Assembly (NCBI GenBank): GCA_958009085.1
Contig: OY253673.1
Span: 682,001 to 746,000, forward strand
Reading direction: 5' to 3'
DNA from: Protoeuglena noctilucae
Lineage: Eukaryota
DNA length: 64,000 nt
Under the pieces are notes generated by a model. The model was not told where the DNA came from, made no database searches, and saw only the letters and a program-made list of their open reading frames with translations. Of the stretch, positions 114-24,800 are shown one piece after another (position 1 is the stretch's first letter; each line of letters begins with the position of its first letter). The position numbers and the translations under genes are program-made.

Positions 114-3100
114 GTGTCGACGTGGGGCTCGGGCGGCGGCCCCATCCCCCATGCGGCGCTCCCTGCGGTACCGAGCGAGTTTGCGATCCCAGAGACCATG
201 CTGCTCAAGCGGCTGATGGAGTCGGGGGACCTGATTGCTCTAAACATGGCGAAGGCGAGCCGTCCTGCCTCTTCCCGGCCGCTGCACGCGCCGCGCCGGA
301 TCCCTGGCCTGTTGCGACGGACTCCTCGCCGCATCGTGCGCAGGATGGCATCTGCATGCGCACGAACGGCAAGTCGTGGCGCTGCGCCAACCCGCGCATG
401 ATGGGTAGCCGGTACTGCACCAAGCATGCGGACATGGAGTCGAAGCGCAACCATCACAGCCGCAAGAGGGACTGGATCGGGCGATGGCGGGCCCACAACA
501 GGGACAGGTGCGAAAGGCTCGACTCCCGGCAGCGTGTGGAGTGAGCGCCCAAGCGTGGCGCCAGCATTCAACCGGTGCGGGTGCGGTCGTTCTCAGGGCG
601 GGCGTCGCGGACGCCCCGAGTGACGACCCGGTTCTGGAGACGAACGCGGCACTGCGCCCGGCCCCACGTAGGGCCGCAGCTGCCCGTGCGAACAACCTGA
701 TCGAGTCACTGGCGGCCGCACCGGGCAGGCAGGTGGGCTACTCGGGCCGCTCGCACCACGTTCTGGCGGCGAACCAGCACCCGATGTTCGCGGGGCAGCG
801 CCGGATGGACCGCTCGCGCATGGATGCGGACGTGATTGTCATCGGGGCGGGGCCCGCGGGGCTGGCCGCGGCGCAGCGCTTGCGGCGCGAGGGGCTGGAG
901 GTGGTCGTCCTGGAGGCTCGGCACCGCCTCGGCGGGCGCTGCCACACCGTGACGCTGCCGGCGGTGGAGGGGACGGAGGGCTTGCTGCCAGAGGTCAGCG
1001 TCGACCTCGGGGCGAGCTACATGCACGGGTGCTGCGACGCGCAGCCCGTGTACCGGCTCTCCAAGGACCTCCGCGTCGATTCCGAGCCCGTGGACGACGG
1101 TCTGACTGAGGCGAGGGGCGCGCTGCAGCAAGGGTCTCCTCACAGTCCCTGCCGGCGTCGCTGCACGCTTTGGCTCATCATAGCAGCAAATTCCGATTCC
1201 ATCGGACGATCGAGCAGCGCGCGTGCGGCGCCACGCAAGCGCTGCAGTGCGTGTGGCGATGGCCGCTTCCCTTGTACCTGCAGAAGGCGGCTTGGTACGC
1301 GAATGGGGAGAGGCACCACATCTTCAAAGTCAAGTCCTTCCACGCGATTCTGCACGCCGCGGGGTCCCTCCTGATCCACCGCACGCGCGCCCGCAAGGAG
1401 GCGGGGCTTGAGGACGTGCCCATCGCCGCCATGATGGAGGGGTGCCTGGCAGACGCGCTGATCGAGCGGGCGCTGAAGAGGCTCCCCATGGAGAAGAAGA
1501 AGGTGGGTATGCGGTGTCATGTGATGGGAAATGGGTTTGCAATGTCAAGAGCAAGAGATGGTGGGCGCAGGGTACGTGAGCTGCACCTTGGTGTGCGCTG
1601 AGCTTCTGGGCTTGCGAGGGCTTACCTTCCATGTTATGTGCACAGAAACATCTTCGTATGGTGTTTCTCTTCGCAGCGGATGGCCCCCGGTGTGCTGGAG
1701 CGCATCCGCACGATGCGACCCCTGTTAGAGGACACGCCCACTCCGTCGCCCGCACCGACACTGCCGCCCGCATCTGAGGAGCGGCACAGGCAGGCGCGGG
1801 GCCATGCCTCGCCTGGCAAGTCCCGCACCCCCAAGGGTGGCCATGGCCACGCAGCGGGCCGCAAGCAGGCGGACAAGTCGCCCCTTGCGCCGCACGCCGG
1901 CCAGCCCAGGTGCGCGAGCCCCCGGCTGGTTCCGGCAGTTGCGTGTTGAAAGTGGAAACCTCGCTGTGTCGCTTCGTCTTACATGTTGTAACACGAATGA
2001 GTCCAAAGCGCTCCCCTATTGTTGTCCCCCTGCAGGGAGGGGAGGGCGGGGCAGGCGACGAGGCATTCTGGCAACGGGGCAGGGACGGGCGTGGTGGGCC
2101 GGGACGGGGCTTCGGCAGACGCCTCGCAGGCGCTGCAGGAGCTGGCGCCCGTGGCTGTGCTGCAGCGGGCGGCGCTGCACGCGTCCGAGGCAACCAGGGA
2201 GGCGGTGGCGGCGGCTGGCGGTCTGCGGATCTTCGCCGACGAGGATCCCATGATGCGCGACCAGGTCCGTGCGTCTGCGGGCGATGATCTGACTGGGACT
2301 CGCTCAGAGCCGGCGCCCGTGCCCTGTCGGTCTAGCCGCGTGACACCCTATGTGCCAACACTCGTGCCAACACCCGTGACTGCGTGCTCACAGGTCCTCG
2401 TCCTCTCCTTCTGCGCCGTGGGGGGCTTCTGCGAGCCCGACGCGGCCCGGTGGGGCATACCGCCCTCAGACGAGGCGCCGTCGGTCAAGTTCCCAATGCT
2501 GGGGTCGCAGGCACTGGGATGCTCCCGCAGCGCCGAGCGCGTGGCGTCGCCGATGCTCCAGGAGGTGCTGGAGGGGTGCACGGAGATCCTGCGCAGGGCG
2601 CGCGGGCCCGGGGCTGTGGCGGCGCGGGTGCTGGGGACCGGGCGTGACGCAGAGGACGGGCCCCAGACGCTGCAAGAGCTCTTGGGGTCAGTGACGGCGG
2701 CGGGCGACACGGCGCCGCTGCGGGCGTCGTTCCTCCGGTCGCTCCGCGCGCAGCAGGTGGTGGCGCGGTTGCAGGCGACGGCTCACGTGGTGTGCGCGCT
2801 CGTGGACCCACTGCTGGCCTTCGCGCTCCTCCACGCCTCCGTCCGGCAGCTCCGCAATGTGCTGGCGGAGATCTCGGTGAGTCCCCGGCACGCCCTGCCA
2901 CAGTGCCACCTCCCTCCTCTTTCGCTCTCCAGCCCTTGGGGTAACGCCGCTCTGCTCTGGCACGCTTGCGAGCAAAGAGTCCAGCTCTGCGTCTCCCGTC
3001 GCAGGCGAACCGAGTCGAGCCGGCCATCAAGGCGGCGTCGGCCACGTCTGCAGAGGGCGTGTGGGACATGGTGATCGGGCAGCTGTCGCAACGGCTGGCG

Positions 3101-6100
3101 GGAGGTGGGCTGGCGGGTCTGCCCCTCCCGGGGGTACTGTCCCGCGCCCAGCGCGCCGCGGGGTGCCTCCGTGGCATGGCGGTCTCCATTATGTCCGCCA
3201 ACGCCGTCGCCGTGCTCCACGCTTTGGCTGCTCGGGACGAGGATGTCGCAGATCCCCACCTCGCACCCGACCTGTGGCCCCTCGGCCCCTTCACGGTGCG
3301 CGCACACAGCTTGCGGCTGCTTTGTGGTGGCTACGATCACCCTGTGTGTCGCTGCACTCCCTCTGGCGTGACTGGGACGGCCGTGGGCCCGGCTGGACCC
3401 CGCAGCATGTGAGCACACACACTCGACATGACATCCGCATCTGCACGACAGCCCTGCCCCGTCCCACCCACGCAGACCCCCGCGATCGAGTCGCTGCAAG
3501 TCGAGGAGGTGCGCCTGGGCACGCGGGCGTCGTCGGGCGCCGTCAGCCGCCCCTTGGCAGGCGGCCCTGGGGGCGATGGGTCCATGAGCAATGGGACCGC
3601 CGTCCCTGGCCTGGCACTGAGCGATTCGGGAGAGGGTGTCATGGCGTCCGCTGGCCCCTCCACGCACGTCGTCGCCGTGTCTGACGTCCACACCCTCCCT
3701 GTGCCTTCCATTCGCCCGGCTGCCGTCCGCCACGCCCACCTTCCCGAGCGCCCCATGGCAGCATTCCCGGACTCCGCGCCGGGCCACGCCGGGCTAGCAA
3801 CTCAGGCGCTTTTCCCGGGTAACGCTGACGCGGCTGACGTGGCGGGCGCCGATGCGAGGGCTGCGGGGTCGGAGGGGGTTGCCCAGGCGAACGGCGATGC
3901 TGGCCCAGGCAACCACGGCCCTACTCACGCTCCGGTGGAGGTCATGGAGGTCGATGTGATCGATGAGCGTGCGGGAGGAGCGTCCCTGGTGTCTCAGTCC
4001 TGTCCTGATGGCGGGGCTGGTGGGGCCGACAGCGGCACTCCCACCCCAGGCACCTCCGCCGTGCCCCAGTTGTCTTCAGAGGAACTCCACCGCATCCAAC
4101 AGAGCCTCGCGACCGCGGAGGCTCCGTGCCTTGCCCCGGTGTCCGTGGCTGGCTCTGCGGTGCACGCGGCGGTGGCGGGCGGTGGGGCGGTTGATGCGAT
4201 TGGCACAGTGGGACCGCCCGTGGGTTTGGAGGGCGGAGTGGCTGAGGCGGGCAGCGAGACAGATGCAGAGAGGGCGGAGGGGCTGCTTGATGGGGCAGGT
4301 GCCGGTCATTCAGCAGGGGAGGTGGGGTCGCGTGCGGCGGGTGTGACGGGTGATGGCGACGCAGTGATGCAAGGAGGTGCGATGGGCGAGTCGGGTGCAG
4401 CTGCCGGGGTGGCTGGCGCAGCGAGGGTGGAGGAGAGGGCTCCGAGCGCGAATGGGCACGGGGGCGATGCAGTGGACGTGCCTGGTGGGGCTGGCGATGC
4501 GGGGCAGGGTGCGGATGCTGAGAACGATGCTCTGGGCGGGAGTGCGAGCGTTTTTCGGTGGGGCCTGCGGCAACGGAGACCTCGAGGGAAGGTGCCAGAG
4601 AAGGCGCCAGAATCGCCGGCGCTGAAGCGGGCCAGGCGGTCTGCGGAGGAGACCCCCGGGCAGGGTGGCAAGGTGAGGGGCAAGCAGGGGCAGGGTGGGA
4701 AGGTGAGGGGCGACGGCGCTGGTTGTCAGCGAAATGGATGAATGCAGCTTTGCTGATTGTCAAGACGCAAACGTGGATGTACTCCGTGCTTGTATGCACC
4801 ATGCGCTGTTCAATCTCTCACATCAGCTCAGCGTCGCTGCTTGTGTGCATGACCGCAGTCGCCCTCGGTGGCCCCGGATGGGGAGGCGCCGTTCACCCTG
4901 GGAGACACCACAGTGGCCGGGGGACCCCTGGGCACCCCTTCCCTGACCGTGGTGCACCGCGCTGTGCAGCGGGCGCAGCGGGAGCTGGGCCTGGACACGC
5001 CAGACGAGGTGCTGCCTGGGCTCGACTGCGCCATGCTTGCGGGCGCCCTGTCCCGGTCGTTCGGCTACGTGGCATCGCTCTCGGAGCTCTCCACGATGGC
5101 GGAGCTGGCGTCTGCGGACGAGGTGGCGATGATCGACGGGGCGGCCAGGGACGCGGAGGGACGCGACGGGCGCGGGGCGGCCGGCGAGGGTGGCAGGGGC
5201 GAGGGCGGCCGGGGCGAGGGTGGCAGGGGCGAGGGCGGCAGGGGCGAGGGCGGCAGGGGCGAGGGTGGCAGGGGGGATACCCTGCTGGCCCCGCGGCGGG
5301 GGCGCATGGCGGGCGAGAACGGAGGCAGCAACGAGGCAGGCGGGGCTGCAGCGGGCGCGACTGGGGTGCCTGGGGGTGCCAGGGCTGCAGGCGCGTGGAT
5401 AACAGATGGGGCGCGTGAGTACATGGGCGGCGGTGATGAGGAGAAGGAGAACGGCGAGAGTGTTGCGGCGCGTGTGGAGCGGGAGCGTGCGGCGCTCGAG
5501 CGGGAGATGCGGGAGCGGCAGGAGATGCTGGGGTTGGAAGGGGCGGTGGGGTTGGACCGGTATGTGAAGCCGGGGTACGGCCCTTTCCTCATCCAGCATT
5601 TGATGCAAGGGTTAGAGGACAGCGTCCGGCTGGGTCACGTGGTGCGCAAGGTGTCGTCCAAGCTGGGGGGCGTGGAGGTCGTGGTGGAGGTACCCATGGC
5701 AGACGCCGGTGAGTGGGTGCGGGTGTGGGTAGCAGTGTGGGTGTGGGTGCAAGTGCGGGTGCGGGTGTTTTTGTGAGTGCTAATGACCGCTGTGTATGTC
5801 CCTATATGCAGAGGACCAGGACTGCCCCGTGTTTGCGAACAAGCCGGCAACCAATGGGCAAGGCGTGCACTGTGCTGTGGACAACCCCCTCCCCGCCCAA
5901 CTGGCCATCCTGGAGGCGCGGTACTCTGCGCACCGTCACGCCGTGCGGCCGTGGAGGGCCAAGTTCGCCATCGTGACAGGTGAGGGCCCGGGTCGTGTTC
6001 GGGTCACCCTGCCACAAGCCACCCTGCCTCATGCCACCATCTCGTCTCACCCTGCCCTGTGTCCACATGCTGCATAACGCTTCTCCCTCCGCTACGACTC

Positions 6101-9100
6101 CCGCAGTGCCCGTGGGCGTGCTGAAGAGCAAGCACCCCCGCAGCGCGATTGAGTTCGACCCGCCTCTCATGCCCTACAAGCGTGCGGCCATCGACACCCT
6201 GGGCATGGGGTGCGAGAACAAGATCGTCCTGCGATTCCCCCACTGCTTCTGGAACCCCACCGTCCCATTCTTCCTCACTGGTGAGCGCGACGGCCCTCGC
6301 CATTGTGTTGACTTTCATAAGCTGCCATCGCCGCTGCTGTTGCCGACAACCGACTGCCTGGCCTGTCTGACCCTTGCCACGAACACACCTCTGCTCTCAA
6401 GTAACCGTTACCACTGACACCGCCCCACCTGCCCCGCCAAGTAAGCCACCCCCGCAAGTAAGCCACCCTCGCGCCTCTCACCTCCCGCAGACGACCCTCG
6501 CGTCCGATTCGTCAACCTGCACGCCTTGGGCAAGGAGAACGTGATCGTGGCGCACGTCCCTCCGCCTTACTCGTACTATTTGGTCAAAGGCCAAGTGCCG
6601 CCCGTCCAGGTCGTGACCAATGCCACGGCGAGCGACAGTGACGCGGGCCTGTCTAATGACGGTGCAAACGGCGATGCGAACGGGCAGGGGCATGCGGAAG
6701 GGAACGGTGTGGCGGGGGACGGTGTGGGTGGGACTGGCGGGGTGGGTGTGGGGTCGGGTGGGACAGAGGTCAGCGCAGAGGCCAAGGTCCTTGCAGCCAA
6801 GCAACTGGTGATGGAGATTCTGCGCAAGAGCCTTTTTGCGGGGGAGGACTCGGTGCCGGAGCCGCTGCAGGTGACGGCACAAGCGTGACTGAGGGTGACT
6901 GAGGCGGCAGTAATTGTGGTCTCCTCCACGATTGCACGATGTGTTCTCATCGACCTTTGCTCGCGCCATCTCCATAAGTCCTTGCACACTCGTCGCCCAC
7001 CTGCCACCATACGCCCTCTCGCAGGTGGTGGTCACCACGTGGGACGCGGACCCCTTTAGCCTCGGGTCGTATTCCTTCATGGGAGTGGGCGCCACGGCAG
7101 GCATGGTCCTCGACCTGGCTGCCTGCGAGGGCCTCCCCGGCGAGTGCCGCGTCTACTTTGCGGGCGAGGGGTGCTCTTTGGAGGGCCACCAGTGCGTCCA
7201 CGGGGCCTACGACACGGGTACAAAGGCCGCCGAGGGCATCGCGCGCCGGCTGTTGAGCCGAAAGGACCCCGGGGTGCCTCAGCTGTTTGAGTATGGCTCG
7301 GCGCACACCGTGTACCACATCCAGTGCAAGGACTGCGGGCAGTGGCGCAAGCTGCCCCAGGGGCTGTCGCCAGAGAACCTCGGGGTGTTTGCGGCGGACG
7401 ATGAGAACTGGACCTGCGCCAAGGTGACAAGCGGGGTGGGCACTGTTCACGGGGTGGGTGCAGTGCGCTGGTGTAGTGTGTGGGTGCGGGCGGGGCACCA
7501 GCTTGTCAGTAGGCAAAGTGCGATCGATGCTCGCTGCCCGCCCTCTCAACAACGCCCGCTGTTCTTCCCAACGACCTCGTTGCCCTCCCCGCAGTGGCAC
7601 AAGTCCTGGGGCACCCGCACCTTCTGGGACCGATGCACGGCAACGCGCGCCACGACGTCCGACGGCGGAGCGACACCCGCCACCGCCGCCGCCGTCGACG
7701 CCGCCGTTTCTGGCCCGGCGGCGCCCCTGCCAGAATCCGCCCGCGACCACGAGGCCAAACCGGAGCTTAAAGATGGCCCGGCCAGGGCGCCGGAGCCCCT
7801 CGGGAGGCCGAGCGAGGCTCCGGGGCAGGTGGCGGTGTCGGGCAGGGCGGCTGAGGTCGGTGGCCCGGCCCAGGCGGCCGTCCCCGTGCCCCGGCAGTCG
7901 GACAGTGCGGGGGCAGCCTGGGGTGGCGCCTCTGTGCCCGTGGCCCCCCTCGCGCGCTGGTCGGACGCGGGGGTCCCGGGGAGCGCACCGCAAGCGCAGT
8001 TCCCCGTCAGTGGGCCCACGCATGCCACGTCCTGGACAGCGCAAGCAGAGACGGGAGGTGCAGGGTACGCGCCGGGATACCAGCTGGGCCCGTCTGCCGC
8101 TTCCCAGGCGCGCGTCGGGCCCCTGGCCGCGTATGTCCGGGGCGGAGAGGCCGGGGGAAGTCACTCCGCACCGCCCCCCGCTTGGGCCGCGCATGCTGTG
8201 CCTGCTGACCCCCGCGCGCCGTTCCAGGGCGGCGCTTACGGCGGCAGCGCTGCGTTCCCGAGAGATGACCGCGCGCAGAGGAGCAGGTGAGCGTGGGTGG
8301 GAGGAGATCAGAGGACGCCCCTGCGTAGGGCCTGGGCGAGTGGTGGATGGCGTGTGTCGGCTGTCGTGTGTTTGGATGACTGGTAGAGGGCTGCAGTGTT
8401 TGGTGGCCGTGTAGATTGGCGGCGCGGGCAACACCCTGGCCCTCCACGCTTGCAGGGACGCCCCGCTGCCGCCGCACTCGGGTGCTGAGGGGCCTGGGGT
8501 GGTGGCGGGGGTGGACACGACGAAGGGGCTATCCCGAGAGGACCGCATCCGGCAGAGGGAGGAGATCAAGGCGAGTTGAAGGGAGGGGCTGGGTGGAGTT
8601 GATGTGGGTAACACAGATGACGCGGAGTGAGGGTGGAGCCAGGATGCACATAGCATGGATGACCCACTTGTGGTGACTGCCACCGCGTGGTGCGTCGGAA
8701 CGATCAGCAACGCGTCCCGTCGCCGCAGACCAAGATCGCAGAGCGGGTGGCGCAGGGCGACAGCCGGGCCAAGCGCTACAACATGCCAGGCAGCGGCCTG
8801 GTGCGGCGCCCACCCAACACCCGCTGCCGGTTCTGCAAGAGCAAGCACCTGGGCGGGTGCGGAACGGACGAGGCGCGGGACGGGTGCCTGAAGCGGCCCC
8901 GGAAACCTGGGGACCCAGTGCCACGACCGGGGCGCATGAGCCGTCGGCGCCCGTCGGCGTCTCAAGGCCCGGGGGGCTCCATGAGCGGGGACTATGGGGG
9001 CTCCGGGACGCTGGGGGAGGGCTCTGAGAACTACTCGGGTGAGCGGGGAAGGCGGCTGGCTAACCGGGCACTCTGGACAGGCGGGTGAAGGTAGTACCGA

Positions 9101-11976: not shown

Positions 11977-14900
11977 ATGTCCTGCGTGCAGCACGCGCCG
12001 CTCTCTGGGCGCGGGGCCCTCCTCCGCCGCGCCCTGGCGGGGAGCTGTTCGGCCCCCGGGGTCGGTAGCGGGCTGCCTTTCAATAACCTCGTCGCTTGGG
12101 GGCGTGGCGACGTCGACGCGCCGGGTGAGGAACCGCGGCGAGAGGCACGTGCGTTGGGCGCACAATCCCAGCCCAGCCGCGCGAGGGACGACCAGCGCAG
12201 CTCGAGCGTGTGGTGTCGAATGCGCGCTATGATATGACGTCGCTTGCTGCCGCCGCGGGGGTTTGTCGCGTCCGTCCCGGCGAGCATCGCCTCAAGGACG
12301 CATCGCGCGGACGGGCCGCTTGCGCCCGCCCTCCCGCGCACGAGCGTCGCGACGAGGCCGCGTCCCGCGTCCACTCGACGCAGGCTATATCGGCCGATGC
12401 GCCGTGCTGGGAATGGCGCCCCTTTCCCTCGCCCGCCGCGCGGCGGGGCGCGCCCACGCGTCCCCGTCACAAGTGACCACGGAGGCGCGGGTGCCGCCCC
12501 GCCTGTCGGGCCAGGACATCCGCCGCAAGTTCCTGCAATTCTTCGAGTCGCGCGGGCACCTGCGCCTGCCCTCTTCCTCGCTCGTCCCGGAGGACCCGAC
12601 GGTGCTGCTGACCATCGCGGGGATGCTCCAGTTCAAGCCGGTGTTCCTCGGCCAGCGCCCGCGGCCGGCCCCGCGCGTGACGACCACGCAGAAGTGCGTC
12701 CGCACCAACGACATCGAGAACGTGGGCGTCACCGCGCGCCACCACACGTTCTTCGAGATGCTCGGCAACTTCTCATTTGGCGACTATTTCAAGGAGGAAG
12801 CCATCGCCATGGCCTGGGAACTCTCCACCAAGGAATTCCTCATCAGCCCTGAGCGCATCTGGGTGTCAGGTGGGAGGGGCTTTTAGCGCCCGGCAGGACA
12901 GCGTAGAGGGGGCATGGGATGCCGGCACCACTCAGCGGCAAGCCCGGCGCCCACGCAGTGTACGAGAAGGACGACGAGTCCCTGGCCATCTGGAGGGACA
13001 AGATCGGCGTGCCCGCTGAGCGTATCAAGGCAAGTTGCTGTGCCTACCAACGTTGCCCAGCCACTGCTGTGCTTCGTCACTCCACCCCCCGCCCGTTTCC
13101 GCAAACCTCGCCCCACTTCCCTATCGCAGCGCATGGGTGAGAAGGACAACTTCTGGGCGTCGGGGCCCACCGGTCCCTGCGGCCCCTGCTCTGAGCTTTA
13201 CTACGATTTCCACCCCGAGCGTGGCGCGGAGGGGGCCTCTCTTGAGGACGACTCCCGGTTCATCGAGTTCTACAACCTCGGTGAGAGATTCCGATTCCGA
13301 TTCCGATACCGATTCTGCTTGGTTGTTCTTATACAGTCGTGCCCAGAGTTGTCACCCGCGGCCCCCACCCGCCCGCACAGTGTTCATGGAGTTCAATCGC
13401 GACGCGGAGGGTCGCGTGGCTCCCCTGGAGAAGAAGAACATCGACACGGGGATGGGATTGGAGCGGATGGCGCAGATCCTGCAGCGGGTGCCGAACAACT
13501 ACGAGACGGACCTGGTGCGGCCGCTGATGGACGAGGCCGCGCGGCTGGCCGGCACGGACTACGACGCCGCGGACGACCGGCAGCGCCTGGCGCTGAAGGT
13601 AATCGCCGACCACACGCGTGCCGTCACATACCTCGTGTCGGACGGGGTCACGCCCTCGAACGTCGGGAGGGGCTACGTGGTCCGCCGCCTCCTCCGCCGC
13701 GTCGTGATGAAGGGCCGGCTGCTGGGCATCCCGCACCCGTTCCTCCCTGCCGTCTCCCGGGTCTCCATCAGCCTGTCGGGGGACTGCGACCCAGACGTCG
13801 CCCGCAACGCCGACCGCGTCCTCGCCGAGCTCGAGAGGGAGGAGATGGCCTTCGTGGTGAGCAACGGAACTCCAACCATGACCTGGCTATACCTTGCCCC
13901 TCTTGTCTTGTCTCATCATCTGCTATCTGGGGAGCAGGGCTAGCATCTCTCCATATGACACCCGACCACGGCTACCATAGCTCAACACCTTGTTACCCAG
14001 GCGACGCTGAAGAAGGGCGAGAAGATCCTGTCGGACGTTCTCGACAAGGCGGTGACCGCTAATTCGCCCGTCTCGGGCCCTGACGCCTTCCTGCTCTACG
14101 ACACGTTCGGGGTGCCCCTCGAGTGCACGGTCGAGTGGGCAGCCGAGCGCGGGGTGGGCGTGGACGTGGCGGGCTTTGACGCGGAGATGGAGCGGCAGAA
14201 GCGGCAGTCGCAGGCAGCCAGGGAGGACGTCGACCTGACGGCAGACGCGGTGCTGGGAGAGGTGCGGGCGGAGGCGGGACCCACACAGTTTTGCGGGTAC
14301 GAGGACCTGCAGCTGTCGGGCGCACGCGTGGTGGCGCTGCTGCGCGAGGGCGCGCGTGTGGAGCGCGTGGGGGCCGGGGAGGAGGCCCAGCTGGTGCTGG
14401 ACCGCACGCCTTTCTATGCGGAGTCGGGTGGCCAAGTGGGCGACCGGGGTCGGTTGCGGGTGGAGGGCGGGGGCGCGGAGGTGGAGGTGGTCGACGTTCA
14501 GAAGGCCGCGGGGGGCGAGCTGTTCGTGCACAGCGTGCGGGTGGCCGAGGGGAGCGTGCAGGTGCGGAGGAGCGGTGGGGCGACACTCGTGTGCATGAAT
14601 TCTGGCAGAGTAGCATGGGTGTCGGCTCTACTATCGTCATGTGACTTGTTTTCGCAGGTCGGGGACAGGCTGGCGGGCGCGGTGGACGAGGTGTCCCGGG
14701 GTCGCATCCGCGCGAACCACACGGCGACCCACCTGCTCCAGAGCGCACTGAAGGCGGTGCTCGGCCCAGACACGTGCCAGCAGGGGTCGCTCGTGACGGC
14801 CGAGCGCCTGCGTTTCGATTTCAACTCCCCCAAGGGTGAGCAGGGCGCGTGCGGCGCTGCCCTCGTAACCTCGCCTTGGGCTGGCGCGGCGCCTCACCTG

Positions 14901-16067
14901 ACCCGCACCTCGTCCGGTGTGCCGCAGCCATGACTCAGGAGCAGCTGCGGGAGGTGGAGGACCTGGTCAACACCTGGGTGGGCCAGGCGCATGCTCTGGA
15001 GGTGGAGGAGATGCCCATTGCGGAGGCCAAGGCCAAGGGAGCCATCGCCATGTTTGGCGAGAGGTGCGTGGCGCGCCAGATGCGCGAGAGGGCGCACCGC
15101 TAAGGCTGAGGAGTGAGTGAATGCGAGGGTGAGCGAGTGAGCGACTGCGGCTGGCCCTTGCAGGTATGCGGACGTCGTGAGGGTTGTAGATGTGCCGGGG
15201 GTGTCGATGGAGCTGTGCGGCGGCACGCACGTGGGCAATACGTCGGAGATCCGCGGGTTCAAGATCCTGTCCGAGGCCGGCATCGCGTCGGGCATCCGTC
15301 GGATCGAGGCCGTGGTGAGTGCTTCATGCAGGGGTCATAGAGCGCCAGGGACGGTACCGTACCCGGCCACTGCGCTGCGGAGACTCGCCGAGGGCCTTTG
15401 GGGATCGAAGAGAGCGGATCCCGGGAACTATTTGAGGAACTGCGCGCATTAGCGAGGACTTTCGTGCACTTTCCCGCTGCAGACGGGCGACGGGATGATC
15501 GCGCACCTCAACACCGTGGACGGCATCGTGCGGGCGCTCGCGGGCGGCCTCAAAGTGAAGCCGGAGGAGCTCGAGGGGCGCGTTCGCGCCATGCAGGACG
15601 AGCTGCGCGCGGCCGCCAAGGAGGTGGCGGACCTCAAGTCGCAGCTGGCCCTGGCGAAGGCCCAGGCATTGCTGGGGCAGGCGGAGGCCGCGGGCTCTTT
15701 CCGCCTCCTCGTGGCGCGCTTGGACGGAGTCGACGCCAAGGGCCTGCAGGACGCCGCGCTCGGGCTGCAGCAGAAGCTCGGGGAGGCAGGGGCCGTGGTG
15801 CTGGGTTCCGCGTCGGAGGACGGGAAGGTGTCGCTGGCTGCGGCGTTTGGGAAGGAGGCGGTGGCCAAGGGGGCCAACGCGGGCAAGTTCATTGGCGGCG
15901 TGGCCCGGGCGTGCGGCGGAGGGGGCGGGGGCAAGCCAAACGTGGCGCAGGCGGGGGCTAAGGACGCGTCGAAGCTTGATGAGGCCCTCAGCCAGGGGAA
16001 GGCCGAGCTCACGGGCACCATCATCGGGAAAACCGCGAGTCTGGCGTCAGTAGGATCATCCCCGTGA
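11977..16067 (+). CDS. alaS: Alanyl-tRNA synthetase, organellar (plastid/mitochondrial) type; the last ~15 codons come from a transposon end
   Basis: [114 protein letters not shown]. The start at 11977 (transit-peptide-like exon) is tentative. Confidence 0.95.
13287..13315 (+). repeat. (GATTCC)n hexamer microsatellite at the 5' end of an AlaRS intron
   Basis: gattccgattccgattccgataccgattc immediately after the GTGAGA donor. Confidence 0.85.
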
Positions 16068-16135
16068 TACCCAGGAATCGTGGGGATCATCCCGCTGATC
16101 CCGGGGTATCAGAGGGATCATCCCAGTGATCCCAC
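16016..16135. repeat. Left TIR and subterminal GGGATCA/GATCCC array
   Basis: ggatcatccccgtgatacccaggaatcgtggggatcatcccgctgatcccggggtatcagagggatcatcccagtgatccc. Confidence 0.85.
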
Positions 16136-17443
16136 TGACGACACAGACTGTAATGTAAACCCTCATTGAGCCCAGTGATTCCAGCCGCGCGCCCGATCTC
16201 CCTGGGGAGGCCGTTTTACGCGGCGCGGTTACGGCCACGGCGCACCCGGGATGCGAGAGGCCGCTGGGAGCAGTTTCGCGGCATTTCGTCGTGGTCGGGG
16301 ATCGCGGGGAGCGGGGCCCACTCGGGAGCGCAGCGGCGCCGGAAGCGTTAGCCGAGGCTATCCCGCCGCCTATCTTCCTTCTCGGCCGCGATCAGACCTA
16401 TCTTGATCGCGATCGGACGCATCTTTTGGGCACGCGCGCTCCGGGGCCCGCGCGGCCCGGGGGGCTCCGTTCGGCCCGTAATCGCTCCCTAGCGTAGCTA
16501 TTGGTATTTCAATCCCTACGCCGAGGTTACATGACCATCCGTGACGCTCTAGGCAACGCACTCATGCACGCACATGCAGCCGGACTCGGGCGGCCGCAGG
16601 CGCGACGGGAGCGCGCAGCGACCACCGCCAGAGGCACCGACCGCTTGTTCCGGACGCTGCCGCTCCATCGGGGAGCGGCGCTCCGGCACTCGGGCCAGGC
16701 ACTCGGGAGATGGTGGCGTGCGCGACTCCGCCGTGCCGACGGCCGCCCCAGGAGTCGATGACCACCGCTGCGGGGCGCCGCGGACGCCAGACGACAGACA
16801 AGGGGCATGGGTCGGCGGACGAGCCATGGCGGGCCCGGCCAGCACCCGACCAGCGCCGGAACTTGGGACGAGGTGGCACGTGCGCCTGCGTGCTTGTTAG
16901 GCGAAGTTAGAGTCAGTCTCGGGGTGAGAGAGTGCAGGCACGGTGCCAGGTACAGTAAGCAAGTACAGAGATACCACGCTGGCGGACCAGCCCTTCGTCC
17001 CTCCCAGCCAACCAACCCCCCCTTGCACACCTGACCGTGTCGCAGACCCCACCGGTAGCGCAGCAGACCAACCGCGCACCTCGGGGACAGCGACAATGTC
17101 CGACCTGATCTAGTCATGCGTATGCTGCATCTCACCTCACGGGAGCTGGCCCCTCCCCTCCCCAGCCACGTCAGCACACCTCGCAGATGGCTCAGCAGCA
17201 GGCTGCACTCTCACCCTAGAGAGGGACGATGATCCAGCGCTGTTCGCACCAGCAGCGCCGAGCCTCGCCTGTGCGCGGTGCTGTCGCTGCAGCCCTGCAA
17301 TCCACCCCCGCTTGCCTGGAGGACTGACGACCCCTGAGCCTGCCTGACCCACAGAGCGCGCGCTGGACTTTCCTCACCTCCGCTTCCACGCCCTCACCAT
17401 GCCCGCCTTGAACCCTGCATCGCAACCTGCGCTGCAGCTCACC

Positions 17444-20400
17444 ATGCTCGAATGCGACGCGTGTGGAACGCAATTCGATACCCCGGCCAAGCTCGCCCGG
17501 CATCAGCAAAGATGCCCTGCGCTGTGGGGCTGGAGATATGGCGAGGAGAGCCGCCAGGAAGCACCCCGCCCCGCCGCCCCACACGAACACTATGTCTCTC
17601 CGTCTCTGCGAGGCTCGGACGGGCTGGCACGCGACAGCGCCAGCGCGGGACCAGACCAAGAACTGCGGGAGGAAGACGGGACGGCGGACGTTGCTGCGGG
17701 CAGTGATGGCGAGAGCGAAGATGTAGGACTCGCGTGGCTCCACTACGCCGACACGGACGTGGACATGGACGTGGACATTGACTCGGAGAGGGGTGAACCG
17801 CCCGAGAGCGCCGGAGCGCATGATGCGCCCCAAGAGGACGCTCCTGGAGTCTCCTACCTTCCTGCGCCCGGGGAGTACGAACCGCTGAAGCTGCCGGAGG
17901 ACCTGGAGGCATGGCGGGCCAGGAGCAGGGACAGTGACGATGAGTACCTGAGCCAACTTGAAGCAGGGGCGCAGTTCATGGCATCGCTGACGGCAGCGCA
18001 TTTCGATTGCTTCGTGAAGCTGCGCCCCGACATCCGCGACGACCTTCTCGACCTCGGGCGCTCCCACCGCACGTTCCACACCTCACTCAACAGCATCCAT
18101 GGCCAGTACGAGGTGCGTCACGCCGCGGTGCCGCTTGTGTCGAGGGCCTCGGACGCGGCCGAGGGGGCTGACGCCAACCAGTGCACGCACGGCCTGCAGG
18201 TTTTGCAAGAGGAGGGCAGCACAACCATCATCTACCAAACGATAACGGTGCTGAGGGACATGCTGGTGCACGCGGAGCAGATCAAGCCCAAGACGCTCGT
18301 TAAGTTGATGCGAGACTTCAGCGAGGCACGGGAACGGTCACGCCAGGCGCGGGCGAGACCACATGAGACGCATCCCAGCATCCACGAGAAGCTCACCTTC
18401 TCCCGGGCGAAGGGGTATAGCGACATAGCCGAGGCTGTCGCTGGCAAAGTCCGCCCCGAGCTGCACGCCCGGCTGCTCCTCGTGCCCGTCGCGTACAGCA
18501 TCGACGGGGTGGAGATGACCAAGGGCGCATCGACGACGCCCATCCACATGCACCTCCTGTCGCCTTGCAAGGCCGTGAGGACAGGGACGCCGCGAACCGT
18601 GGCCACCGTCGAGTCCATGAAGGCGAGAGGAGGATTGCCGGCGTTGCAGCCCACACGTCCACCACCACGCCGCGTGTATGAGTTGTCGCTCGAGGCCCCC
18701 GCAGGTGTCCGGGATCACTCCGGGGTCACAGGCAGACCTGAACAACAGAGAGGCCATCCAGCGGCGGCTGGCTGCCGTGGACCGGCAGCTGATTGGCGTG
18801 GCGAGGTCCGGTGGGGTGTGGATGACCCTCCCCGACGTCGGGAGAGTCATCGTCTTTCCCGTCTTGGCGGCGCAGCTGAACGACATGATGGCCAACTCGT
18901 CCACGCTGGCCGTCAGGTCGTGCCCGCTGTGCCTCCAGGATGACTGCCGCACGCCTCGCACCGTCGCGCTGCATCGCCTCCAGGTGCAGCACATCCTGCG
19001 CTTGAGGAGGGACGTGGGGACGGCCAGGGCCAACGAACAAGCCAGGGAGAGCAAAATTCATCCTGTGGTTCCTGCCCTGTCGTACTGGGACGAGTTCGGG
19101 TCGGACTTGTATCAGGGCCAAGCACCTGACCCCATGCACACCGTGGAACTGGGAATGTTGGGCAAGACTGTTCCCTTCTGCATACTGACCGTCCTCTACA
19201 ACAACGCGGCAGCGGGAGAGTCTGCGACAAAGGCAAACGCCCTCTTGGCTGCGTTCGCATCGATCATTGCGGATGCCAAGGTGAGCTGCAGGTCAGGCAA
19301 TGGCGTGCGTTGCCTGCAGTGGCGCCGCAGCTGCTCGGTATTCACCTGGCATGTCCATCGTCGTGTGGGTGGAGCGCAGGCCCCGGCATGGATCCACGCC
19401 CGTCCGTGGGGCGAGACCTTCCAAATCGTGCTGAGCCTCGTGGACCCGTTTGGGAAGATAAAGGCGTACGAGGCGAGGTTCTTGATCCAAGCTCTGCCTT
19501 TCGCCCTCGTCGAGCTCTTCTCTCGAGGCGAGGCCGACAGTCAGCGCTGCGAGGGCATCGGGAGGAGCTGCGGGTATCGCGATGCGGGCCGGGGAACCCC
19601 GGGAGTGTTTCCCCACCACCACATCCCTTGCAGAGCCTACGGGCAGCAAAGACGTGCACGACGAGAGGGTTGGGCTCGTGGCCGTAGCCCTGGCATGCCT
19701 TCAGCTCTATGCCGAATGGTCCCTGGAGAGCGCCACCATCGCAGGGGCGCAGGCGGCGGACGCGCAGCTGAATAAGGTCCTCCACGTGAGGCCTTCTCCA
19801 ACACCAGCCCCATCGTTCGCTGCCCCTTACTCACTCTGGAAGCCTTGTCGCTGCCGTGTCGCCGCAGGTCGTGCTCAAGACGCTGCTGCGTGGCCACGAA
19901 ATCGTCCGCACGGAGAAGCCCCTCTTCAGCAAGATCGAGAACAGCCAGAAGTGCCACGCGCTTTCGCATTTCCCTGCAGTGGTGGCGAGGAACGGCTCCA
20001 TCATGTTGGGCAGCATGAACGACGCCGAGCGCATGCACAAGCCCATTGCCAACGCGCGCACGAACGGCAAGGGCGACGTGCAGGTACAGGCAAGAAGCGC
20101 CGCCCAGCGTAGGCGACGCGGGGAAGCCCACGCAGGACGCGTTTCTTGCGACTCACACGTCTCGATGCGGTCGCACGGCGCTCGACCCGCGTGCCATGCT
20201 GAGCCGCGCTGGACTGACCCCCGAGCCCTGTCGCAGGCGAGCACCCGCGTCATCTCTCAGAGGGCGGCCTCCGTCATCAAGAGCCGGGCGAGGGCGGAGC
20301 AGCCGGTCCCGTCCCAGCCCGAGGACCAAGTGAAGGGCGTGAAGACCGTCCTGAAGAAGAACGACCTGTGCAGCGAGGGACGCGCGGAAGACTTCGTTTC

Positions 20401-20902
20401 TAAGGCGGACCTCCTGAACGCCCTCAAGGGCGCGGGGCTTCCCTGCCACGTCTTGGGCGAGGTCGCGCTGACCTCCACGGTCGAGATCGGGACGGCCAGC
20501 GGGGACCGGGCCAGGATCGTCGCCACCGACGAGACCCTGTCCTTCGTCGAGTACCTCCCGGACAGGGGCACGCTGCAGACGGGCAGGGTCGTGTGCGGGG
20601 TTGAGGCGAAGACCAGCTCCGGTGCCGGGACCTTCCTCTGCGCCCTGGTGGCCCCGGTGCACAGGGCCCCATGCGACCTGAGGTACCTGTCCAACCAGTG
20701 CTTGTCGTTCTACACCAACCTGGGAGCGCTGCAGCCTCCCCAGCTGTCGCTCCTGGAGCCTGCGGAGGGCGAGGCTCTGAAGTGCGTGCCCCTCCGCAAC
20801 CTTCGGCGGCAGCTTCACGCCGTGAAAGTTGCTGGGAAGCTTCTTCACTGCGGCCACGTGCAGCAGGTCTGGGAGCACCACGCCAGCGGCGGCGAGGAGT
20901 AG
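17444..20902 (+). CDS. Plavaka-like DDE transposase with N-terminal C2H2-like zinc finger; ~7 exons, ~950 aa
   Basis: Predicted exons 17444-18112, 18200-18622, 18705-19280, 19380-19527, 19634-19785, 19868-20083 and 20237-20902 join in frame. Motifs: CDACGTQFDTPAKLARHQQRC; VAYSIDG (D1); LNDMMAN..CPLC (D2 plus CxxC); PDPMHTVELG; KCHALSHF..RNGS..DAERMHK (E); beta-rich C-terminal domain. This pattern resembles Plavaka/CMC transposases. Confidence 0.78.
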
Positions 20903-21445
20903 GTGACCCCAGGAGCTCCCCGATGCTCGCGGTGCCAGGTCCCCGACGCCGGCGATGTCATCTGTATCGAGATAATTCTCCGAAGCCAGCCCCGCGCCCC
21001 CATCCGCAGCGCCATGACGGCGGGGACGGCTCACCTCCCATGCAGCAGCCACCTCCGTGCGGCGTAGCCGGCAAAGGCGCCGCAGCTAGCGAGATTTAGG
21101 TCACCTCAATCCATAGGCCAAGCGCTGCGTGCCCGATCGCGGCCGCGGCGGCGGTAGGCCTGGTCGAGCACGGGGACCTCCCCGGCGCCCCCGGGGGCCC
21201 GGCGAGCCCGCGAGCTCCCGCTCATCGCATAGATATGGACATCTCACGTTGAACAGCGGCGGCGCAGGGGAAGCGGACCCCGGATGCGTCGACGGCCCCC
21301 GTCTGCATGCTGGAGCAAGCTTTAGGACGCGAGAGGGGCCTCCGAGGCAGTCATTAGCACCAACTAGCAAATGTGCGGTCTCTCCGCCTCCTCTCGAGCC
21401 CCCTGAGCAAACGCGGGGGCGCGCACGCGCGTCAGGGCCGCGGCC

Positions 21446-21605
21446 CGGGATCGCTGGGATCACTGCGGCAGTGGCGGGGATCGCCGGGATCACGGGGATG
21501 ATCCCGGCGATTCCCGGGGATCACTGGGATGAATCCAGTGATTCCCGCGATCCTTCTGATCCGAGTGACGTCAAATCGCCGGGTTTTCCCGATGACACTG
21601 CAGTG
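21446..21605. repeat. Right subterminal GGGATC array and TIR
   Basis: About 8 GGGATC/GGGATG/GATTCC units followed by ggttttcccgatgacactgcagtg. Confidence 0.85.
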
Positions 21606-21813
21606 ACGGAATGCCTCAGACACGGCCAGGACTTGCAGTGACAGAAAACTTGGGGCCATAACTAGTTCTTTTCAACCTTTGATCCTGGCAAGAGATAGTC
21701 AGCAAAGGAAAGCGTAGAGATCGCTTGGTGTTCTTGGGATCCATCACGCGTGCGGTGACCTCACGGACATCATGGGGCTTAGCGGATCTCAATAGTGGAA
21801 TTGTGAACAGTAG

Positions 21814-24800
21814 ATGGCGCTGAAAGCCATTCTGGGAGGAGCCCGGTCCGCGGCCACTGGGCTGCGCGGCCCGGCAGGTGCGGTGCGCGCGTCGGCTCAG
21901 GCCAGGTGCTGCCGCGAAGCAGGCAATGACGATTGGCTTGCATCGCCGATGCCAGCAGGCCAATCGATCTCGGTTACGGGAGCTGCGCTTCTGTCGCGGC
22001 GCTTTGCCGATGAGGCCGAGCCGTCGGGGCAGGAGGCGGACCTCCCCCCCTACATGGGCCCTTATGAGCGCGATCTGCACGTTCAAATCGCCCACAAGCG
22101 TGGGATGGACATTATCGGAGATCCGATTTTCAACCGGTGAGTCTCAGACGTGGCAGAGCGAACGGGGAGCTCGCACGCGTTCACAAGAGTTGCATTGGCC
22201 AACGGACCTTGCCTCTCCCTGCCCTGGTGCTTAGGCTGCCCGTCGTGCCTCCGCGGCATCTACTTTGCATGCCTCTCTCCTCCTGGCACCGCTGTGACGC
22301 ATGTCCGCGACACCGCCGCGCCGCGGCAGGCCATCACACATCGATCACTGACTTCAGCCTGCGCGGCCGTCTGCCGCAGGGGTACGGGCTTCAAGGAGCA
22401 CCATCGAGAGCGTTTGGGACTGAGGGGCCTGTTGCCGCCTTGCGAGACGACGCTCGAGACGCAGATGGCGCGCCTCATGAACGTCTTTCGCAACGGCATC
22501 TCCACGCCCCCTCCGCCCGAGCCCATCACCGAGCAGCACATCCAGCAGTGGCTGTTACTTAGGTGACTGCCAAGAGCGAGAGTCGCCCGCTTCCCCGCGT
22601 GGCCCGATTCGCTGCCAGCTACCCCAGCGATCGCATCGTTTGCTGATCGATGCGCCCCGCCACTGCCCGACGTCGCCCGCTGCTCTTGCAGGGACCTCCA
22701 CGACCGCAACGAGACGCTCTACTACGCCCTGCTCGTCAAGCACTTTAAGGAGCTGGCGCCGATCGTGTACACGCCCACGGTCGGGTGGGCCGCGCTGAAC
22801 TACTCGGTCATCCATCGGCGCCCCCGCGGCTTCTACTTCTCCCAGAAGGACAGGGCCCACTTCTCCTCCATGCTCTGGAACTCCCCGCGGATGGAGGTCG
22901 ACGCCATCGTCGTCACGGACGGGTGCGTGGGGTGCACGGGCGTGGGGTGCTCCGTCTTGGCTAGACTAGCCTCGCTCTTCGACGTGCCAGGCTGCCCTCG
23001 TCGCGCGCAGGTCCCGCATCCTCGGCCTGGGTGACCTGGGCATTCAGGGCATGGCCATCCCCATTGGGAAGCTCGACTTGTACGTGGCGGCGGCGGGCTT
23101 CCACCCAGACAGGGTCTTCCCTTGCATTGTGGTGAGTGCATGCCATGGTGGGTGTGGTGGATGGCATTGCAGTGAGGGCATGGCGTGGTGGGTGTGTTCG
23201 CCTGAGCCTGCCTGGCGTGTGTTGCGATGCAGGACGTGGGGACGGACAACGTGGACCTGCGCAACTCCACCGAGTACATCGGGCTCCGGCAGCCGCGCAC
23301 CAAGGGGAAGGAGTACTTTGAGATCATGGACGAGTTTGTGTCGGCGGTCATGGCGCGGTGGCCCAACGCGGTGCTGCAGTTCGAGGACTTCAACACCAAG
23401 GCGAGGAGAACGCAAGCGGGGTAGATGCACGGGGTGGTGGGGCTGGCGTGAACGCTCACAAGTGATGCAGATGCGGGTGCCTGGTGCCAGCACCACACCG
23501 CACCACACGTCACTGCACACCCTCACTCGTTGCTTGACTAGCCCGTGTCTGCAGGTGGCCCGCACGCTGCTGGAGCGGTACCGCAACCACCACATCGTCT
23601 TCAACGACGACATCCAGGTGCGGAGATGCAAGCGAGCAAGCAAGCACGTAGACAGCTGTGCAGCATGGCTGTCTCTTGTTTCATGCACGCGCCAGCAGCA
23701 GCGCACCATAACACGCTGTGCTCTCTTGCCCAACTGACGAGCCCAGCATGGCACAGCTCAGCTCACGACAGCTCAGCCGCAGCAACCCGCGACGCCAACA
23801 AGCAGTGCGAATCGTGTCGTGTGCGCAGGGGACGGCGGCGACGGCGTTGGCGGGGATGTACGGGGCCATGCGGGTGCTGGGGAGGCCCAAGCGCGCCATC
23901 ACCGAACAGACCTTCGGTGAGGCCTGGAGCGGTCGCGATGCTGTACTGCAAAGCCCTTCTGGATTGCTCGGGCGTTCATGTGTTTAGCTTTGTACTGCGG
24001 AGCCATTTTATGCTACACTAGGTCTTGATGATGACTTCATGCGTCTTCTCGCTCTCTCTCACCCGCAGTGGTGTGCGGTGCAGGGTCGGCGGGCATGGGG
24101 GTGGTGGAGATGATCGCGAAGGGCTTAGAGCGGCACGGCCTGCCACTCCTGCAGGCCCGCAGGCGCTTCTGGCGAGTGCCCCTGCAACGCGCATGATGCG
24201 ATCATTGCAATTCCTGCGACGTGCCCACCACATGCGCTCGGCCTCTTACTTTGAGCATGACCATCCGCTCACCGCCCTTTCGATTAACCAGCTATCAACA
24301 GCCCTTGTTTGTGATCGACGCATCGCCTTTCCTGCACCCCTGTCCCCAGGATCTTCGACCAGGACGGCCTGGTGACGACGCGCCGGCACGGGCTCGACCC
24401 CTTCGTGATGCAATTCGCGAGGCCCGAGGAGGACATGGACGGCATGAAACTCCTGGACGTCATCAACCGGGGTGCGTGCTGCTGATGGGACGGCCAGTGT
24501 GACCATTGTCCATGGCTGTGGATGTGCGCATTGCCTTGCAACACGTCGCGTCGGCGGTGGCGACGGATGCGACTGCGGAGGGTGTACAGAGCCCCGTCCG
24601 CTGCGCCTTGATAATTTATCATCCCCGTCGCCCGCAGTCAAGCCGACGGTGCTGTTGGGCCTGACGGGCGCGGGCAAGATCTGGAGCCGGGACGTGCTCC
24701 GTGCCATGGGCGAGCACAACGCCCGGCCCATCATTTTCCCCATGTCCAACCCCACCAGCAAAATGGAGTGCACGGCCAAGGAGGCACAAGAAGCCACGGG

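Follow-up and report, generated by a model that had tools for sequence, protein, structure and literature searches.

What kind of mobile element interrupts the end of an alanyl-tRNA synthetase (AlaRS) gene in Protoeuglena noctilucae, where precisely does it begin and end, and does its family still move? These questions arise from a 64,000-nucleotide stretch of contig OY253673.1 (positions 682,001 to 746,000; assembly GCA_958009085.1), referred to here as the window, whose own numbering is used throughout. An earlier interpretation made from the letters alone, the sequence-only reading, had placed at 16015-21605 an intact, autonomous and possibly active transposon of a Plavaka/CACTA-like kind. 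Having followed this up, we assign a probability of roughly three in four to the statement, taken as a whole, that the element is a Plavaka-like, autonomous and recently active member of the CMCT clade (EnSpm/CACTA-Mirage-Chapaev-Transib-Plavaka) with a 2-bp target-site duplication (TSD). That it is a genuine multi-copy transposon bounded by inverted repeats at its termini (terminal inverted repeats, TIRs) is close to certain. On present evidence it would form a new family within a kind already known, Plavaka, rather than a new kind, and is set apart from the Plavaka elements of other algae by their published descriptions.

In the scheme that we propose, this would be a class II cut-and-paste transposon, closest to PlavakaB of fungi, whose single gene of six predicted exons would encode a DDE transposase of 981 amino acids. 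The CCHC/C2H2-like finger at the N-terminus of this protein, perhaps together with its C-terminal domain, would bind the subterminal GGGATCA-type arrays and the terminal sequence CATCGGGAAAACC, and re-insertion would proceed through a 2-bp staggered cut, probably mostly at NA or CA dinucleotides.

Terminal repeats and boundaries

The ends carry the most direct evidence. A 14-nt core, TCATCGGGAAAACC, occurs at exactly two sites in the window, in inverted orientation (16021-16034 on the plus strand and 21582-21595 on the minus strand); with up to two mismatches allowed, the chance expectation is 0.27 matches, and two sites were reached in 2 of 100 shuffles. Similarity continues beyond the core. 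Aligned end to end from 16022 and 21594, the two termini are identical in 29 of 36 columns across the first ~35 nt and in 95 of 138 aligned columns across the outer 130 nt, and a repeat search joined both ends through two inverted matches, one 58 nt long (81%) and the other 60 nt (78%). The left TIR (16021-16055, plus strand) comprises the exact core and, from 16022, a PlavakaB-like terminus; the right TIR (21560-21595, minus strand, read from 21595) is delimited by the core match, the end alignment and the contigs of other copies. Inside these repeats lie arrays of GGGATCA or TGATCCC type, at 16043-16140 on the left and 21447-21560 on the right. Eight of the 13 exact sites in the window fall within the two subterminal regions of ~180 nt each (four in the left 180 nt, four in the right 176 nt), and one more lies in the open reading frame (ORF). 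On the model of En/Spm, which has subterminal repeats of its own, these arrays are presumed to be binding sites for the transposase. The imperfect TIRs with a shared core and the mirrored subterminal arrays described by the sequence-only reading are thus both real. When the element was compared with the remainder of the window by BLASTN and TBLASTN, chance matches alone were returned, with no second copy or related coding sequence.

The outer limits are fixed by other copies of the element. The region 15400-22200 matched 18 listed public runs from 8 studies, two of them possibly the source of the window itself, and four runs were compared as contigs; among these are X3, an organism-labelled culture run of 2025, X11, a run of 2023 with another organism label, and X9, a metatranscriptome. 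Contigs of X3 depart from the window at 16016, 16018 and (twice) 16020 on the left, and after 21595 and 21597 on the right; that of X11 departs after 21594. Because other copies leave the window sequence at 16016-16020 and 21594-21597, the stretches 16015-16019 and 21596-21605 are flank, and the element runs from about 16021 to about 21595, a length of 5.6 kb. The ends first proposed, 16015 and 21605, have accordingly been moved inward. The direct repeat ACGG reported with them is indeed present on both sides (16011-16014 and 21606-21609) but is not a TSD, since the copies diverge inside it; as the intervening stretches are flank, both the outer ends and this duplication are coincidental. That the element might nevertheless extend over 16015-21605, with a CACTG-type palindromic outer end and a 4-bp ACGG duplication, we find scarcely credible. 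It would account for ACGG on either side and for the right outer 10 nt, CACTGCAGTG, which form a palindrome like a CACTA-type end; yet the two outer stretches do not pair as inverted repeats (GCACCA, 6 nt, on the left against 10 nt on the right), and the divergence of X3 and X11 copies inside them refutes this extent, unless all of those contigs represent truncated copies.

The corrected element, 16021-21595, is flanked on both sides by CA (16019-16020 and 21596-21597), which we take as the probable TSD. All four X3 left-end contigs listed begin to resemble the window at or before 16020, and thus keep the A at that position, and the three right flanks, that of the window included, read CA, GA and CA. 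For the window copy two models can be written, 16021-21595 with a 2-bp CA duplication or 16019-21595 with a 3-bp CAC duplication, and the former suits the other copies better. Several observations count against so simple a conclusion: the CAC model is a remaining alternative, albeit one in which the left end would gain two extra bases and become asymmetric; the X11 flank, with T after 21594, agrees with neither model; and the duplication rests on one paired copy together with unpaired flanks of others. Comparison of flanks places the termini at about 16021 and 21595, but the CA duplication is only probable, and its length with it, because the flanks of the other copies are unpaired.

Two features of the flanks deserve separate mention. 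The right flank opens with a perfect 10-bp palindrome (CACTGCAGTG, 21596-21605) that is absent from the other copies. The left flank of one other copy contains GCAGTGAC some 30 nt out, plus CACCA immediately before the element, as in the window. These likenesses (CACTGCAGTG with GCAGTGAC, and CACCA) may hint at a preference for particular target sites.

The sequence of the termini themselves bears on the identity of the family. Read from 16022, the end is CATCGGGAAAACC, and it reads identically on the other strand from 21594, so that the element opens with CATCG (16022-16026) and closes with CGATG (21590-21594). In Kojima 2025 (PMC12730594), PlavakaA is characterized by a 2-bp TSD and termini TGT..ACA, and PlavakaB by a 2- or 3-bp TSD and termini CATCA..TGATG; four of five positions of the latter pattern are equal here. 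Against the consensus sequences given in the same source, the terminus matches PlavakaB-1_RuGr (CATCAGGAAAACC) at 12 of 13 bases and PlavakaB-1_PaIn (CATCAGTAAAACC) at 11 of 13. With nine "-101/-102" entries excluded, all 30 of the PlavakaB consensus sequences listed there open with CATC (28 with CATCA, one with CATCT and one with CATCG), followed mostly by two or three variable bases and a run of A. We regard this match as the strongest single argument for an affinity with PlavakaB, and one that is independent of the protein. It is not without blemish, as the perfect TIR opens one base outside CATC (T at 16021, A at 21595), a departure from the fungal elements. Exact scans for the TIR pattern gave no matches in metagenome contigs, genome contigs or viral contigs.

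The predicted transposase and its affinities

Between the terminal regions, prediction of splicing joins three plus-strand frames into an ORF of 2,946 nt (981 codons) comprising six exons and five GT..CAG introns, from an ATG at 17399 to a TAG at 20900-20902, without stop or frameshift. The single spliced ORF of ~950 amino acids that had been described as free of lesions is borne out at this slightly greater predicted length. It would measure 952 residues if an additional in-frame GT..AG candidate intron (18113-18199) were removed; this segment is kept as exon because its codon periodicity is coding-like (GC content 0.79/0.57/0.89 across codon positions). The same periodicity marks all six exons, with GC content of 0.39-0.48 at second (GC2) and 0.77-0.90 at third (GC3) codon positions, and is flat in the five introns; values in the host AlaRS exons are comparable (GC2 0.48-0.50, GC3 0.84-0.90).

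The predicted protein contains, in order, the residues expected of a transposase of this clade. Exon 1 (17399-18574, 392 codons) encodes a finger of the form CX2CX12HX3C (CDAC...H...C; residues 19-39, nucleotides 17453-17515), an acidic region and the first putative catalytic residue, D369 (18503-18505, in YSIDG). Exon 2 (18705-19280, 192 codons) supplies the second, D452 (18882-18884), with C465-x2-C468 (18921-18932) and DPMH (residues 534-537). Exon 3 (19380-19539, 160 nt) is placed by its GT..CAG junctions and codon periodicity, and no junction of the gene model is weaker than its donor, GTCAGC at 19540; exon 4 (19634-19785, 152 nt) is placed by the model. Exon 5 (19868-20083, 72 codons) carries H718-x3-H722 (19955-19969) and the putative catalytic E742 (20027-20029) in DAERMHK, and exon 6 (20237-20902, 221 codons and the TAG) encodes a C-terminal domain with no Pfam match. 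The finger and the D...D(CxxC)...DxxH...KxH...ExxHK series claimed by the sequence-only reading are therefore all present in the predicted spliced protein. Its "beta-rich" C-terminal domain is not confirmed: a single-sequence AlphaFold2 model of exon 6 shows mixed helices and strands at a mean pLDDT of 46.5, too poor for use, as is that of exon 2 (34.9). Upstream of the gene, 16141-17398 (plus strand) is a non-coding region presumed to hold the promoter and 5' untranslated region, with no second gene. In ORFs of the 1.26-kb 5' part, of the 0.69-kb 3' part and of the opposite strand, GC is flat across codon positions and Pfam gives no match at E<=0.1, from which we conclude that the element holds one gene and no accessory gene.

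The order D, D, C(2)C, H(3)H, E agrees with the signature of the CMCT clade as set out in Kojima 2025 (PMC12730594). Within that clade, searches with the protein point to Plavaka. PF18759 (Plavaka) matches exon 2 with an E-value of 0.0072 and 16.0 bits, over profile positions 198-317 of 325, and is the only Pfam family to match that exon at E<=10. Apart from this and sub-threshold zf-C2H2 matches to the finger (E 0.06), no exon matched any Pfam family at E<=10, whether Transposase_21, DUF4218, another EnSpm family or KDZ. In a language-model atlas, exons 2-3 fall among Plavaka clusters at 0.94, where 20 of 30 neighbours belong to the Plavaka set and the features shared number 167-168 of 256, and residues 190-392 of exon 1 find Plavaka clusters at ranks 2-3 with a score of 0.89. 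Taken with the motif order and the PlavakaB-type termini, these results support the Plavaka/CMC-type assignment made at the outset.

A number of results nonetheless weigh against placing the protein in Plavaka. In the exon-by-exon comparison with Pfam, PF18759 stood as the only family on exon 2, but its 16.0 bits fall below the gathering cut-off of 26.3 bits and come from a single exon. Exon 1 and C-terminal sub-pieces, where the first ~200 positions of the profile are expected, gave no Plavaka match at E<=10; the profile spans the junction of exons 1 and 2, at which the frame changes, and the exons were scored separately. The atlas scores (132-168 of 256 shared features) lie under the level typical of a single family and serve as leads only. 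A phmmer search of 1.84 billion representative proteins with exons 2-3, the in-frame intron being read through, produced two matches and no relative: P0001, a 201-residue, differently spliced model of this same gene that matches 18705-19229, and P0002, rejected as a spurious tandem-repeat protein. Word-indexed searches for longer relatives found none at E<=0.001 and none at E<=10, and a scan of metagenome contigs guided by exon 2 gave 89 pattern matches, of which 0 were confirmed by tblastn. A sequence search of the PDB with exon 2 returned four chance matches (best E 0.15). The splicing of P0001 is itself probably wrong, as its end is an out-of-frame tail.

Some of these shortfalls would also be compatible with a place in the CMCT clade outside Plavaka, as a divergent EnSpm/CACTA, a Mirage-like element or an unnamed algal lineage whose PlavakaB-like ends arose by convergence. 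Such an origin could draw on the sub-threshold PF18759 score, on the want of any relative among billions of proteins searched, on one atlas cluster with PF02992 (Transposase_21; rank 26, score 0.90), on the subterminal arrays, which are classic for En/Spm, and on the 2-bp TSD, the value for Mirage as well. We judge it distinctly unlikely, for no exon matches Transposase_21, DUF4218 or another EnSpm family, Plavaka is the sole family matched, the termini after correction are not CAC(TA)..(TA)GTG, and a 12-of-13 match to a PlavakaB terminus within a shared CATC-N3-AAAAC pattern is hard to ascribe to convergence. It is to be noted in its favour that lineages of the clade generally share CA..TG termini and TSDs of 2-5 bp, according to Kojima 2025 (PMC12730594).

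Two named superfamilies fit poorly. Against EnSpm/CACTA stand ends that read (T)CATCG..CGATG(A), with CAC in the flank only, and the missing Transposase_21 and DUF4218 matches; the termini thus do not justify the "CACTA-like" label first given to them, with no CACTA or CAC..GTG at the corrected ends. Against KDZ (Kyakuja-Dileera-Zisupton) stands the lack of a KDZ Pfam match and of an 8-bp direct repeat at the ends, 8 bp being the TSD length given for Zisupton in Kojima 2025 (PMC12730594).

A Plavaka affiliation invites comparison with the systems described so far. PlavakaB of Agaricomycotina (Kojima 2025, PMC12730594) resembles the present element in its termini (CATCA..TGATG there, CATCG..CGATG here), in a short TSD (2-3 bp there, probably 2 here) and in size, the 5.6 kb found here lying at the small end of the approximately 6-25 kb in the listed consensus notes. 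It is unlike the present element in host, which here is a marine photosynthetic eukaryote; in the protein, which here falls under the Pfam cut-off and has no phmmer relative; in the TET/JBP accessory gene, of which there is none here; and in the long GGGATCA-type arrays and GC-rich six-exon gene found here. The En/Spm (CACTA) elements of plants have in common with it a cut-and-paste DDE mechanism, C(2)C and H(3)H motifs, short TIRs and subterminal arrays. They differ in their CACTA or CAC..GTG termini, in a TSD of 3 bp as against probably 2 here, in the Transposase_21 and DUF4218 matches lacking here and in making two products, TnpA and TnpD, where this element has one gene. Yuan and Wessler are said to have placed En/Spm (CACTA) elements within the CMC superfamily in 2011.

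The Plavaka transposase was reportedly first named by Iyer et al. in 2014, and Plavaka was long regarded as fungal. The sequence-only reading called the algal family little-described; only a few algal examples have been described, but the description is dated, since reports from red, green and streptophyte algae appeared in 2025-2026. Red algae (Bostrychia moritziana and others) contain giant Plavaka elements of 17-19 kb with accessory genes PAG1-3, mostly degenerate (bioRxiv 10.1101/2025.02.11.637652), from which the present element differs, by comparison of descriptions, in its 5.6 kb, its single gene and its youth. Plavaka candidates have been noted in chlorophytes, streptophyte algae and a moss (the Spirogyra paper, PMC13519894). 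The "EnSpm-Plavaka" elements of the green alga Auxenochlorella, potentially active and with insertions polymorphic between haplotypes (bioRxiv 10.1101/2025.02.07.637104), are alike in being Plavaka-type DDE transposons of an alga for which activity, as here, appears possible. None of these algal elements was recovered by our protein searches, whose collections do not contain them.

Other copies, possible present activity and the host gene

In the X3 culture, one contig of 10,326 nt (depth 150.2) spans 15400-16040 and another of 13,392 nt (depth 107.1) spans 21568-22200; as these bridge both junctions, the AlaRS insertion itself is present in that culture, and independent runs share it. Contigs of the element proper reach depths of 1,354.9 (16036-16586), 1,784.7, 2,015.6, 2,290.9, 2,348.2 (17625-20529) and 2,797 (20500-21485), that is, 9-26 times those of the flanks, which we read only as many copies. 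One of them, the 2,905-nt contig at 17625-20529, differs from the window at two positions and is ~16-22 times as deep as the flank. Of 112 X3 contigs matched, 75 are at least 99% identical, 31 are 95-99% and six are 90-95%, a spread that indicates some older variants within the family, chiefly in the 5' part. Loose ends running into unrelated DNA number at least seven (X3 at 16016, 16018, 16020 twice, 21595 and 21597; X11 at 21594). An X3 contig of depth 61.9 joins 17215 to 20475 without the intervening 3,259 nt and constitutes an internally deleted, non-autonomous derivative; such derivatives are a usual by-product of excision and gap repair. Deep element contigs, differing flanks and this derivative together establish a multi-copy, near-identical family, so that its ends are far from single-copy and isolated. 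The depths would suggest a young family of roughly 10-25 near-identical copies accompanied by internally deleted derivatives. Because it is young, multi-copy and near-identical and includes deleted forms, the family is probably still active, and the suggestion of a possibly active, intact element gains support from the intact ends and predicted ORF of this copy, the many near-identical copies and their differing flanks.

Some details of these contigs stand apart from that argument. At the deletion joint, 17216-20474 is gone, nearly the whole gene, and there is no microhomology. Depth in X3 climbs stepwise from left to right across the element (1,355 to 2,797), and a loose end lies at 17377, a pattern suggestive of sub-families, or of 5'-truncated copies, with the gene and right end in common. 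In X11, a single contig of 5,647 nt spans 16020-21594 and continues into 72 nt of unrelated sequence; this run thus has the element in full but neither flank of the window, shows a different right flank and differs from the window at the two positions that also distinguish the other runs. It could represent the same alga at low coverage, or else a copy from another strain or species.

Whether the family has fallen silent is a question to which several negative observations are relevant. A recently dead relic, amplified lately but with this copy or all copies no longer transposing (through silencing, lack of expression or an inactivating substitution), would be consistent with the lack of any spliced form among contigs of the four runs, with the lack in the same contigs of an empty-site joint across the element, and with the departure of the window copy from X9, X3 and X11, all of which have G at 19424 and A at 20246; the first difference is synonymous (Q599) and the second is R764S. 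The X9 contig of 5,527 nt is colinear with the DNA over 16072-21594, introns retained, at a depth of 46.9; the only X9 flank contig (21759-22031) has a depth of 4.33, and none covers the AlaRS exon. Since this ratio equals that expected from DNA carry-over of a multi-copy element, X9 shows neither expression nor splicing. X15 and X16, which share only small fractions of the region's words, were candidates for the empty site; X15 yielded low-depth element pieces only, with no flank, and has no bearing on it. We consider a dead relic rather unlikely: the ORF and both ends are intact, the copies are near-identical at many times flank depth, a deletion derivative exists, and the missing spliced and empty-site forms mean little when contigs drop rare variants. 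The contig evidence tempers the favoured reading of a young, active family in turn, for by the tool's own warning contig depths are not copy numbers, and the same loss of rare forms applies.

The surroundings of the insertion are those of a nuclear gene. The window consists of nuclear DNA from a eukaryote of high GC content (0.60-0.72), and its genes, which have multiple exons, include an amine oxidase with zf-CW, ribosomal L22, AlaRS, malic enzyme, a PLP enzyme and an AAA ATPase. The AlaRS gene (12887-16020, plus strand) contains introns, and its tRNA-synt_2c and DHHA1 Pfam domains fall on separate ORF pieces. For its last exon the best named relatives come from cyanobacteria and are 50-60% identical over 82-89% of the exon's length; this identifies a plastid-type enzyme, presumably plastid-targeted, and a host that is a photosynthetic eukaryote or the descendant of one. 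The algal host assumed at the outset is supported accordingly, and the runs in which 15400-22200 occurs are mostly marine metagenomes. The insertion lies 11-16 codons before the AlaRS stop, and cyanobacterial AlaRS proteins, when aligned, continue for ~5 residues beyond the corresponding position before they end. All three boundary models restore one downstream frame, ending ...ECLRHGQDLQ*; with the element in place, the AlaRS ORF enters it for 15-16 codons and stops at a TGA at 16065-16067. The copy would thus exchange only the non-conserved C-terminal tail of the enzyme, which is plausibly why an insertion in an essential gene has been tolerated from metagenomes of 2016 to the culture of 2025. 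Elsewhere in the window, ORF pieces at 409-8290 (plus strand) that encode amine-oxidase/FAD domains and, after them, a zinc finger of the CW type may represent an LSD1-like histone demethylase.

A reference copy for a probable algal Plavaka family

The element described here can serve as a reference for Plavaka-type transposons of marine photosynthetic eukaryotes, being a copy that is complete, has defined limits and is apparently functional, in a setting where few algal examples have been described, all since 2025. Public protein databases hold its gene only as the mis-spliced 201-residue fragment P0001, and automated annotation consequently misses the family. Where proteins are too divergent to be recognized, the conserved terminal motif offers a searchable marker for Plavaka ends and for derivatives that lack the gene. 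The insertion also illustrates how a transposon can be tolerated by an essential gene, a plastid-type AlaRS, if it displaces no more than the non-conserved tail.

To our knowledge, compact algal genomes seldom contain DNA transposons that are young, near-identical and multi-copy, and those that exist are raw material for transposon tagging and studies of silencing. More tentatively, and with more doubt than belief, we suggest that the terminus CATC-N3-AAAAC, some 13 bases which the enzyme has to recognize, has remained nearly unchanged between mushroom-forming fungi and this alga as the transposase diverged past what sequence searches can detect, whether by very ancient and very tight co-conservation of end recognition or by horizontal transfer between distant eukaryotes, and that the family is transposing today. 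If this were true, a family now moving in a small-genome marine alga would constitute a natural tool for insertional mutagenesis.

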